Source: Pelagomonas calceolata | Lineage: Eukaryota | Length of the DNA stretch: 64,000 nucleotides | Assembly: GCA_918797485.1 (NCBI GenBank) | Contig: CAKKNE010000002.1 | Coordinates: 1,116,001 to 1,180,000, forward strand | Direction: 5' to 3' | Shown: one piece after another, positions 4,505 to 38,909 of the stretch | Layout of the letters: every line of letters starts with the position of its first letter | Numbering within the stretch: position 1 is the first letter of the stretch | Position numbers and translations under genes: made by a program | The notes under the pieces: generated by a model | The model's database searches: none | Seen by the model: only the letters and a program-made list of their open reading frames with translations | Told to the model about the DNA's origin: nothing

Positions 4505-5029
4505 TTGTCCGTGAAAGAGGCCGAGTTGTCTACGTTTCGGCGCCTTGGCTCACCAGTAGAATACATCCTCGTCGGGCAAGGCAATCTTGCGAACACCTAT
4601 CAACATCTCGGACGGCTTGAAGAGGCCCTACGCCTGCGACAAGATGTATACTCTGGCCGTTTGAAGCTCAGTGGAAACGAAAGTAGAGACACCCTCATAG
4701 CAGCCAACAACTACGCGTTGTCTCTTGTTCATATGCAGCGCTACGCAGAAGCCAAGGCACTGTTGCGCAAAATGTTACCCGTGGCGCGACGCGTCCTCGG
4801 CGAGAATGACGAGACCACGCTCAGGATGAGGTGGTGTTACGCGGATATGCTCTACAAGAACGACAACGCGACGCTCGACGATCTCCGCGAAGCCGTGACG
4901 ATGCACGAGGACACGATACGGACCGCCCGGCGTGTCCTCGGCGGCGAACACCCACTCACCGTGGACATTGGCGCTTGCCTGCGAGACGCGCGAGCCGCCC
5001 TCCGCGCCCGCGAAGCGTCGAGTGCCTAA
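4505..5029 (+). pseudogene. C-terminal TPR fragment of the MYND-RING-TPR family, 5'-truncated
   Basis: GNLANTYQHLGRLEEAL...EAKALLRKMLPVARRVLG...LREAVT...ARRVLGGEHPLT. Similar to the C-terminus of 18782-19963 and to 38607-38909. It lacks the N-terminal domains. Confidence 0.7.
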
Positions 5030-8746: not shown

Positions 8747-9088
8747 TTGTAATTCATAGACATACATCATAGCCTATTTGTTTGGCAGATACCTCGAGCG
8801 GCAGGGCACGCGCTCGCGCAGCGCGCGATAGCGGCCGCCGAGCTCGCGCGCGTCGAAGGCCGCGACGTCGGCCACGTGCTGTTCCTTCTCCGCCGGCGTC
8901 GCGCCGCTCGAGTGGCTCCGCGCCGCGGCCCCGCCCGCGCCGAGGCATTATATCCGCGCCTTTGCGAACCCTCGTTCGCTAGTTCACACAGAAGAGGGTA
9001 TTCGAACAGTCCGGCTGCAGCGGCGACGCGCCCCCCGCCGACGGCGGATCGGTCCCCAATAAGTAGCTATACTTGTCGTTTTATCCGT

Positions 9089-9804
9089 TAACATATCCCG
9101 TCGACGGGATATGTTATACGGCACTCAGCGTGGAGGTCAAATGCGGCACTTCCGCAAGGATCTCAAAACCGCCACTCGGCTCGGCTCGGTGCGGTACTAG
9201 ACCCGTTTAAGTCTATTATTTACACCACTAAAAATTCAAATTTCAAATTAAAAGCAAGCATGCCATTTGTGTTGGAAGTGGTGCGCTTCATTCAAGACCG
9301 CGACGAGTGGATGGCAACGGGCGGCAAGCTGGAACATGTAGGATACATGCGTGCCCATTTTCGCACGAAGAAGGATGCGGCGTCGTACTACGATCGTCAC
9401 AACCCACGCATGCGAGGGTTGAACGCTTACAACACATGGAGAAGCGACTGGGATCCGACCACAAGTCTGATGTACATTGTGCGAAAAGACCATGACCTGA
9501 ATCAGACGATACCTCCATTCGATCCGAAAGATGAACCAGCCATCGAGCGCACGGAAAGCGAAGTTTGTATTAAATACCGTTGGTTACGCTGATTTCCGGC
9601 AGACATTTGAAATACACTAGGCTAAATCTATTATCCCCTTTAAAATTAATCCATTTTGGCTTACGATTTTGCGTTTTGTGTCTGCGCGTTGTCGTCTACC
9701 GTTTTAAAGGGAAAGTGGGTTTTTGAGTTTTGGGCCGAGTGCCGCGTTTGAGGTCTCCCTAAGTGAAAGTGCCGTATAACATATCCCGTCGACGGGATAT
9801 GTTA
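9089..9804. mobile_element. 716-bp non-autonomous TIR element with palindromic ends and a CCGT target-site duplication
   Basis: TAACATATCCCGTCGACGGGATATGTTATACGGCACT at 9089-9125 is the exact reverse complement of 9768-9804. CCGT lies at 9085-9088 and 9805-9808. The interior is AT-rich and encodes no transposase. Confidence 0.9.
9260..9592 (+). CDS. 110-aa hypothetical cargo protein resembling giant-virus (NCLDV) hypothetical proteins
   Basis: Intact, intronless ATG-TGA ORF preceded by AT-rich AAAAATTCAAATTTCAAATTAAAA. The segment HVGYM..F.TKKDAASYYDRHNP.MR.LNA...SDWDP.T.L.YIVR recalls viral-metagenome proteins (from memory, unverified). Confidence 0.7.
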   Translation: MPFVLEVVRFIQDRDEWMATGGKLEHVGYMRAHFRTKKDAASYYDRHNPRMRGLNAYNTWRSDWDPTTSLMYIVRKDHDLNQTIPPFDPKDEPAIERTESEVCIKYRWLR

Positions 9805-11563
9805 CCGTGACATCGCCTCGGCCTGGGGATTCCGCGCCGCGTTCTCGAGCGCGCCGGGCGCGGAGCTCCAGTCGTCCAAACGCATATCATATCCTGACAA
9901 GTTGCCCCGCGCCGCTGGCGAGTCGAAGCCCGTAGGCTCGTCCGCGGCCTGCGTCGGCAGCAAAGCGAGGACGACGCCCTCCGCGTGTCGGCGCACGAAG
10001 GCCCGCACCTTCTGGATGCCCGAGGCGTCCAAGCACGGCGGTGCGTCGCTTTTCGCTTCGACCAGCGCCTTCAATAATGTAGGGTTCTCCTGCGCGAGTT
10101 TCAGGGGCATGTCGTCGTCCTCCGCGAGGCCGAGCTTATCCAGTAAAGCGCCGCGCACCTTGATGAACAACGCCGTCCAGCCGTTCGCGCAGTCGGCCTT
10201 TCCGGTCTTGCCGTCCCCTGTCCAATGCCGACAGGGATTGACGGCGGCCTCGAAGCCGCTCTGTCCTTGGACCCGCGACGGCACCTGTGTGTGGTCATCG
10301 TTTGGGGGGTAGGACGGAACGTTTATCCTCGCGCTGGACTGCACGTGGTGCCAGAGCGCCAGGTCGAGGCACCACCAGGTCAACTGCTGCGAGAGCATGG
10401 AGTCGTTGAGGGCCTCGCCCTTGGCCGTCATGTCCTTCATCCACGCCTCGGACCTACGTGTCGATTTCACGCGGACGCCCGGAATTTGATTTCCACACAG
10501 CCTCGGACACGCCGCCGTCCGTCACGCCGTCGGTCGAGCTGCGGTCGCTGCCCGCGACGGTTATCAGCGGCTGCACGAGCAGGTTCAGCACGCAGTCGAG
10601 CATCGCGGCGCGCGCGGCCGGCCGGAGCCGCGGCTCCAGAATCACGCACGGGTCGTCGCAGTGGTACGGCAGGGGATAAGGACTTTCCCAGTCACCGTTT
10701 TCGAACGGGCCTCCGGCGGCCTGTGTGGAAATCAAATTTCGGGCGTCGCACGTTGTCCCCGTAACTGCGTCTGCTCGATGGCTTGGATAGAACCTAACTC
10801 ACTGCTTGATTTCCACACAGCCGGCGGCCTTCACCAACGTCGAGTGCAGCCCTTCCGTACAATCCATCACATGCCGTTTGGGAGCGTAGCACCACCGCCG
10901 GATCAGCGTCAGCTCCGTCTCACTCACGTCGGGCGCCAGCGCGTCGACGACGCGGCGCCACGTCGTGTAGGTCGCGCGGACAGCGAGGCATCGGGTCGCG
11001 TGGACGCAGAGCGGCCCGTCCGTGGTCGCGTCGTAGGCGCGCCACGCCGCCGTGGAGTCGTCCGACGATTCCCAGTACGCGCCCTTGCCTTCGCCGAACT
11101 TCGGGTCGAGGTAGGGCCACTGGACAAACTGCGGCCCGCCCTCCGCGTCGGGCGCCGGCGGCGTCCTTGCTAATAGCTTGGACCACATCTCACTATCGCG
11201 CTTGCCCAGCGACAGGATCAAAGCGCGCGTGCCGCTCGCCGTGCCGAAGGACCAGCTGCACTCGTCGGGGTAGATGCGGCCCTTGAGCGGCGAGTCGATG
11301 AGCGTCTCATTTTTTACAGTGACGCGCAGGGACCGCGCCGTGAACCGCACGGCGACGTCCTTCTTAGTTGTGCCGTCGGCGACGGGAATGGTCACCTCGA
11401 GCTCGTCGTCGTCCTGGCTCGTGAGCCTGAAGTTCGACTGGTTTGCGTCGGCGGCTTCGAACGGGTCGAAGTTCTGGTAGTTCGTGCCGCTCGGTCCAGA
11501 GGACATGATACTGCGCGAGACGCGGCGCGCGCCGACGCCTTTTGGGGCGTCGAAGGCAGCCAT
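9802..11563 (-). CDS. CS (p23/NudC-like) domain protein, 3 exons, about 532 aa
   Basis: CS domain (TTKKDVAVRFTARSLRV...LKGRIYPDECSW). Exons 11563-10829, 10720-10509 and 10453-9802 join in frame. The stop codon is supplied by the terminus of the TIR element. Confidence 0.8.
10454..10500. mobile_element. Short degenerate introner (47 bp) with 8-bp TSD; forms intron 10508-10454 (-)
   Basis: Direct repeat CCTCGGAC at 10446-10453 and 10501-10508. One intact family end (TTGATTTCCACACAG). Splicing gives GGVSEAWMKD. Confidence 0.85.
10721..10820. mobile_element. Introner (100 bp) with 15-bp TIR and 8-bp TSD; forms GC-AG intron 10828-10721 (-)
   Basis: Perfect TIR CTGTGTGGAAATCAA...TTGATTTCCACACAG. 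TSD CCGGCGGC at 10713-10720 and 10821-10828. Splicing gives LVKAAGGPF. Confidence 0.9.
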
Positions 11564-38606: not shown

Positions 38607-38909
38607 AAGCGCTCTGAAGAAGCCAAGGTACTGTTGTGCAAGATTATGCCTGTCGCGCGACGCGTTCTCGGAGAGAGTCACGAACTCACGCTCACGATGA
38701 GGTGGAATTACGCGCGGGCGCTCTACCAAGACGACGACGCCACGCTCGGAGATCTGTGCGAGGCGGTGACGACGCTCGAGGAATCGGAACGGACCGCGCG
38801 GCGCGTGTTCGGCCGCGCGCACCCGCTCACAGTGGACATTGCCTCTTGCCTGCTAGACGTGTACAAAATCCTCCGCGCCCGCGAGACGCCGTCGCCGGGG
38901 GCGGCGTAA
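38607..38909 (+). pseudogene. C-terminal TPR fragment of the MYND-RING-TPR family
   Basis: [22 protein letters not shown]...ARRVFGRAHPLT, alignable at DNA level with 4738-5029. Confidence 0.75.

Follow-up and report, generated by a model that had tools for sequence, protein, structure and literature searches.

What brings a gene of a giant-virus family into the nuclear genome of the pelagophyte Pelagomonas calceolata, and what kind of enzyme moves it? The question is raised by a 716-bp element in a 64,000-nucleotide stretch of contig CAKKNE010000002.1 (assembly GCA_918797485.1, positions 1,116,001 to 1,180,000 of the forward strand; hereafter the window, whose numbering is used unless another contig is named). 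A first-pass annotation, made from the letters alone, had described a recently active, non-autonomous element with palindromic ends that carries one foreign gene. We find that it is a real, multi-copy, insertion-polymorphic mobile element with shared arms around an exchangeable cassette, and that its cargo belongs to a giant-virus gene family. The enzyme that moved it was probably a transposase of the DDE/integrase type acting in trans.

Symmetric ends and a polymorphic insertion

The element is enclosed by two copies of CCGT, the sole direct repeat of 1–11 bp flanking it (Table 1). Its terminal inverted repeats (TIRs) match perfectly over exactly 37 bp, and each opens with a 28-bp palindrome that occurs twice in the window, at the two element ends; two matches arose in 0 of 100 shuffles. 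The palindrome arm measures 14 bp, compared with 11 bp for the longest other arm in the window and 7–10 bp in all 20 shuffled windows. Beyond the TIRs, an imperfect subterminal similarity of ~55 bp (9126–9180 against 9710–9767) scored 16, the maximum in 2000 shuffles being 6, and the inverted symmetry extends ~90 bp beyond the need of the palindrome. The interior holds one intact open reading frame (ORF), and domain scans returned no transposase inside the element. All of these features had been claimed at first pass and were borne out; the further claim of an AT-rich interior holds relative to the window (48% against 63% GC), and not in absolute terms. The CCGT duplication can additionally pair with the first four bases inside the inner side of the left palindrome, giving a 16-bp hairpin with one bulge. 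Because other copies carry different 4-mers, this extended hairpin is probably particular to the window copy.

Table 1 Features of the element and its insertion site (window positions)
Feature	Position	Strand	Remarks
Whole element	9089..9804	.	Non-autonomous TIR element with TA...TA termini; missing from empty alleles
Target duplication, left copy (CCGT)	9085..9088	+	Empty alleles hold one 4-bp unit
Target duplication, right copy (CCGT)	9805..9808	+	
Left TIR, 37 bp	9089..9125	+	28-bp palindrome at 9089–9116
Left subterminal arm	9126..9227	+	Imperfect inverted similarity to ~9180; repeated GGCACT motif; common to other family members
Cargo cassette	9228..9611	+	AT-rich upstream motif, ORF and short tail; 94% identity over 384 nt to an end-less copy in contig L013
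110-amino-acid ORF	9260..9592	+	Uncharacterised family frequent in giant-virus contigs; no test run gave a transposase, recombinase or HUH enzyme
Right subterminal arm	9612..9767	-	Common to other copies, including a 4711-nt contig joining at 9619; host transcripts enter
Right TIR, 37 bp	9768..9804	-	28-bp palindrome at 9777–9804; outermost three bases form the host gene stop codon
Host CS-domain protein gene	9802..11563	-	Last few codons cut off by the element

Empty sites, in which the flanks are joined by a single 4-bp unit, were found in two of three marine metagenomes. The unit is CCGC in X6 and GCGT in X8; no empty-site contig was listed in marine metagenome X13 or in the possible source run X1. 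Host-gene alleles were counted among 37 proteins, of which 15 without the C-terminal motif were dropped. Among the 22 that carry it, 21 extend past the insertion point (11 at 89–95% identity, 10 at 78–81%), and only the named Pelagomonas calceolata protein, identical across the 158 residues compared, stops there, ending exactly at the element's terminal stop. The insertion is thus polymorphic and likely recent, as had been proposed, and the host protein loses about five residues. RNA reads of the host gene enter the right end for ~190 bases, where they are partly mixed with reads of other copies. A contig of run X14 that matches window 8959–9467 differs at the centre of the palindrome and seems to lack one base of the cargo ORF near 9468; almost nothing else nearby is covered.

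Other copies of the element, for which the first-pass annotation had advised a search, do exist. About nine further contigs among the rows listed for run X1 join the end sequence to other flanks, implying at least four or five additional elements; the 4711-nt contig, which runs into the shared right arm, is a candidate long copy, known from contig size alone. The end sequence is abundant in wild populations, as its depth is far above that of the flanks (summed contig depths, which are not a copy number, of 200 against 15 in X1 and 11641 against 126 in X8). Other members diverge from the window element at 9121–9127, 9147 or 9227, differ in their interiors and rejoin it at ~9610–9619. Since the limits of the cassette shared with metagenome contig L013 coincide with these points of divergence and rejoining, the architecture is one of shared arms and an exchangeable cassette.

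Five junctions are readable at other loci: GGGT precedes one left end (29 reads) and follows one right end (83 reads), and the other three read CACT, CCGC and AGCG. This count omits an X7 junction at 9775, which is either outer flank or an inner variant, and consensus rows mixing several contigs. Two random local 4-mers would match by chance with a probability of 0.007. None of the five is CCGG, CCGT or ACGG, so CCGT as a signature of the family had to be given up.

The cargo gene and a viral cassette system

The cargo ORF has 128 relatives in one search and 369 by profile, and its family occupies 68 viral-contig loci. Twenty-eight of these loci bear the label GVMAG, which we take to denote giant-virus genome bins. 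Twelve residues are invariant over 61 relatives. No family for the ORF was found in Pfam, NCBIfam or PHROG, and 28 of 29 longer relatives likewise have no Pfam match. The structure model is confident (predicted local distance difference test, pLDDT, 95.7) and matches one uncharacterised Megaviridae protein (expectation value (E) 3e-11, template modelling (TM) score 0.84). In the PDB it found no structural match (Foldseek E 0.36 and Z 4.1 at best), which is no proof of a new fold, and a top Atlas score of 0.86 is a lead only. The predicted fold showed no nuclease, recombinase or HUH match.

The nearest DNA relative of the cargo is contig L013, which matches the cassette without the element's ends. 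L013 appears virus-like, having mixed composition, a GIY-YIG gene and a weak DUF5847. The cargo tree, which has few columns and omits L013, does not put the window protein within a supported viral clade. We infer a viral or virus-derived donor.

Several observations were made alongside. Depth over the 3' half of the cargo ORF (window 9400–9610) is far greater (30–160) than over the 5' half (0–8) in three metagenomes, the rise starting near an internal 22-nt palindrome at 9400–9421; other elements may carry only this 3' half. In L013, an imperfect hairpin and an AT-rich word make up a two-part motif that recurs before two different genes (L013 5890–5990 and 7815–7886). The AT-rich word also lies upstream of the window cargo ORF, and the hairpin had no match in the viral contigs. 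A separate 29-nt fragment of the cargo ORF lies at L013 5114–5142.

The same gene family also travels in another system. In 10 of 82 loci, several of them near-copies, the cargo gene stands alone between a different inverted repeat. This viral end family is widespread; a search with it returned 136 loci, comprising 31 distinct paired cassettes with varied cargo, and the cargo gene family was present in 7 of the 136. Among 29 scanned cassette ORFs (of 41), one is a DDE_3 transposase (copy L159), beside restriction-modification cargos. The cassettes have 25–30-bp inverted ends starting TACACC around single genes (restriction-modification, methyltransferases, sulfotransferases, GIY-YIG, cargo family); the loci include L032 6974–7411, L033 7913–8351, L028, L029, L054, L072–L074, L088 and L110–L245. 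In style they resemble the PGv-1-type Mariner elements (PMC3627910; here and below, cited sources are represented by parts of their text). Because its family also occupies these unrelated mariner-type viral cassettes, the cargo gene is a repeated passenger.

How the element may have moved

Four features of the element are established: insertion with a 4-bp duplication, symmetric ends, an exchangeable interior and no enzyme inside. The insertion junction is the outer edge of the palindrome, not its centre. Because the duplication is fixed in length and variable in sequence, as staggered cuts would leave it, we infer an enzyme of the DDE/integrase type; fixed-length duplications are ascribed to DD(E/D) enzymes (10.1101/2024.09.03.611062), and tyrosine-recombinase elements are said to leave no target duplication (PMC3627910). 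The element is therefore best read, with good but not firm confidence, as a transposase-less, gene-carrying, inverted-end element that such a transposase moved in trans. The enzyme would pair both 37-bp ends, cut at the outer TA and join the target with a 4-base stagger. Each palindrome would represent a head-to-head pair of putative 11–12-bp protein binding sites round a tolerant spacer, and the GGCACT repeats additional putative protein sites, so that the palindrome would be no hairpin-resolution substrate. In favour of this reading, the central 6 bp of the palindrome hold six of its seven listed variants. The cargo would be a passenger acquired from viral or virus-derived DNA as a cassette of promoter plus ORF. 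A palindromic end might also allow cutting on either of its sides, and this would promote the capture of DNA lying between neighbouring copies.

Several points weigh against this reading. No autonomous copy or enzyme was found in the window or in the viral and prokaryotic collections searched, and a transposase, integrase or recombinase domain was present in none of the 65 long window frames scanned (of 68, the other three being covered by a separate domain scan). In the species gene table (PMC9481584), of which 14,639 of 16,667 genes were searched and for which repeats had been masked before gene calling, the only transposase named is Tc1-like and would give TA targets. A DDE mechanism alone leaves the palindromic ends unexplained. 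The empty-site joints are single contigs aligned at 88% likeness and may belong to other organisms, which is why the count of protein alleles is needed as support. The two GGGT junctions may belong to different loci. Finally, run X14 has the element at the window locus behind the common wild 4-mer CCGC, not CCGT; this needs a second insertion, conversion or back-mutation, and a single insertion offers no simple explanation.

The parent was sought in several collections. Patterns for the TIR and its arm had no match in the viral contigs, where looser patterns gave 6 and 5 matches, all either partial or lone hairpins lacking a partner end. The TIR pattern had no match in the prokaryotic genomes, and a looser one gave three, each a single intergenic hairpin in its genome. 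As relatives of the element these three (L095 744–774, L096 8001–8029, L094 8001–8030) were rejected, a single copy per genome pointing to chance, terminator-like hairpins; two of them have striking flanks, and L096 has CCGT outside its hairpin. The element end matched nothing in phage records or Rfam. Among the gene-table genes searched, PF00665 had no match, and two RNase-H-fold genes (Pca_1p27840, Pca_2p26960) are without a database match. The remaining rows of the table and the masked repeats may hold the parent.

The alternative that survives best takes the element as a non-autonomous member of a family that is already on record and makes 4-bp duplications (AcademX, Sola, or a Repbase or Dfam entry without classification), the palindrome being incidental to its TIR. 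It overlaps the favoured reading in mechanism and differs in novelty. AcademX combines TIRs with duplications of 3–4 bp (PMC10045372) and Sola with duplications of 4 bp and very variable ends (PMC10741241), both of which would suit the window element, and our literature comparison was made without Repbase and Dfam. Set against this, neither the family nor such palindromic termini are described in the literature searched (including PMC10741241, PMC7805219 and 10.1101/2022.06.06.494994), in which Academ and Sola were compared by secondary description only, and the Sola2 examples compared have AT-rich targets (PMC3627910). We regard membership in a catalogued family as doubtful. The first-pass annotation had likewise matched the element to no type of miniature inverted-repeat element (MITE), and the 'undescribed' status of the element is provisional. 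Should the parent prove to be an ordinary element of the Academ, Sola or GingerRoot-like kind, the result would be a routine new family.

A bolder extension, which we think unlikely, is an undescribed pelagophyte lineage of DNA transposons whose ends read two ways and whose enzyme is either unrecognised by current domain libraries or supplied by a giant virus during infection. If this were true, two-way ends would let neighbouring copies take up intervening DNA, and the family would be a cassette shuttle between giant viruses and one of the ocean's most abundant eukaryotes.

The palindromes might instead be single-strand hairpins for an HUH enzyme, in rolling-circle or peel-and-paste transposition like that of Helitron2, Replitron or IS200/IS605. 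Indeed, each end folds stably into a DNA hairpin (z roughly −5 to −6 against shuffles), the two ends double as a 28-nt direct repeat, and variation is concentrated in the loop, six of the seven palindrome variants listed lying within the central 6 bp. Additionally, Replitrons are said to give 2–8-bp duplications (PMC10741241), and both ends of Helitron2 carry hairpins (PMC3627910). However, the seventh variant, 9110 T>C, which 34 of 79 reads show in an abundant copy, breaks the stem with no partner change listed. The symmetry of the ends (37 bp plus ~55 bp) also contrasts with the short, asymmetric repeats of Helitron2 (PMC3627910) and with Replitrons, which have no TIRs (PMC10741241). Together with the cargo fold, which offers no HUH match, and 'helitron', which had no match among the gene-table genes searched, these points make an HUH mechanism improbable.

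Sites for tyrosine recombinases and protelomerases usually show dyad symmetry round a short, variable spacer. The element's own symmetry resembles this layout, and in one copy 4 bases are duplicated at the centre of the palindrome; the first-pass annotation had considered excision as a circle or as hairpin-ended linear DNA. This hairpin-resolution reading now finds little support, and we judge it highly improbable. The filled site has two 4-mers of variable sequence where the empty site has one, whereas such enzymes are said to leave none (PMC3627910). The junction coincides with the outer edge, not the centre, of the palindrome, which is itself imperfect in some copies, and the 4-base duplication is not exactly central and fits slippage. 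No tyrosine recombinase beyond topoisomerase I, and no telomere resolvase, is present among the gene-table genes searched. Fold-back or circle joints, which would go back or change strand, were not listed in any of eight runs, a weak test as seven of these are contigs that drop rare forms.

That the 110-amino-acid protein itself mobilises a minimal, autonomous element is barely credible: its gene is intact, its family keeps 12 invariant residues and it is the sole content of the 10 inverted-repeat cassettes, but same-ended copies have different interiors, the viral cassettes hold many unrelated cargos, one of them the DDE_3 transposase, the predicted fold is no nuclease or recombinase, the ORF differs from that of L013 by 2 silent and 14 replacement codon changes, and no RNA reads covered 9224–9608 in X22, of which ~6% was read.

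With transposition in trans by a DDE/integrase-type enzyme as the favoured reading, the locus provides a small, complete and polymorphic case in which a host-side transposon has brought a giant-virus-family gene into the nuclear genome of an alga, while the same family also travels in an unrelated viral cassette system. One cultured allele of the host gene is truncated by this strain-specific insertion. The end signature (TA termini, a 4-bp GC-rich duplication and a terminal palindrome) fits no description found in the literature searched, and identification of the parent could lead either to a new group of transposons or to a transposase supplied by a virus.

Other repeats were noted in the window. 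The host gene contains a high-copy short repeat in both orientations (10445–10508, 10721–10747, 10806–10822). RNA skips a 55-nt piece at 10445–10499, which has a GT start in one register and an AG end in 0 of 10 registers tried, and which is possibly introner-like or a strain difference. A dispersed 30–35-nt repeat with the core GTAAGACACTAG occurs at no fewer than seven places on both strands (12376, 21227, 21689, 35079, 40560, 41122, 53884), and a 252-nt direct repeat of 78% identity lies 34 kb apart at 4737–4988 and 38608–38859.

Comparison with known transposons

The element behaves like a gene-carrying, non-autonomous TIR transposon, and we compared it with the described groups. Ginger1, whose autonomous copy carries a Gypsy-like integrase, shares a 4-bp GC-rich duplication, the CCGT of the window copy, and a similar TIR length (40–270 bp in Ginger1; PMC2836005). 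However, Ginger1 starts with TGTNR, whereas the outer end here reads TAACA with its boundary fixed by the empty site, and Ginger1 targets CCGG (75%) or CCGT/ACGG (24%), which none of the five other junctions fits (PMC2836005). Membership was rejected, as end motif and target sequence both fail.

Tc1/mariner membership, including that of PGv-1-type cassettes, was rejected because no TA stands at the junction of the empty site. The target of piggyBac is TTAA, which the left junction spells by chance; the right junction and the empty site do not, and this family was rejected as well. Similarly, Helitron2 and Replitron membership fails on the 37-bp perfect TIR and subterminal symmetry, compared with their asymmetric ends or missing TIRs (PMC3627910, PMC10741241), and tyrosine recombinase or protelomerase membership on the 4-bp target duplication (PMC3627910).

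The mariner/IS630-type cargo elements of giant viruses (PGv-1, Mariner-2_PGv) resemble the window element in having fixed ends and exchangeable cargo, and differ in end sequence, TA target, ends that are not palindromic and a viral rather than nuclear location (PMC3627910). The viral TACACC cassettes are likened to PGv-1 by style, the published PGv-1 end sequences being outside the comparison. Pack-MULE-like elements and MITEs are likewise short, transposase-less and TIR-bounded with foreign coding DNA, but MULE duplications measure 7–12 bp, whereas the window cargo is viral and intact and the element has a low copy number in the possible source run (PMC6839031, PMC10741241).

The closest described group is GingerRoot/IS3EU, DNA transposons with an integrase-related DDE transposase; the likeness is judged from ends, targets and gene capture. 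These elements are larger (4–13 kb, compared with 716 bp) and duplicate 6 bp, rarely 7–8, instead of 4 bp (PMC6839031; PMC10045372), and palindromes are mentioned in the main text of neither source. Like the window element, they have TA...TA termini (PMC6839031), inverted ends of ~100 bp (PMC6839031; PMC10045372) and GC-rich targets of no fixed sequence (here CCGT, GGGT, CACT, CCGC and AGCG, from few junctions; PMC6839031), and they too include copies that have captured genes and lost the transposase (PMC6839031).

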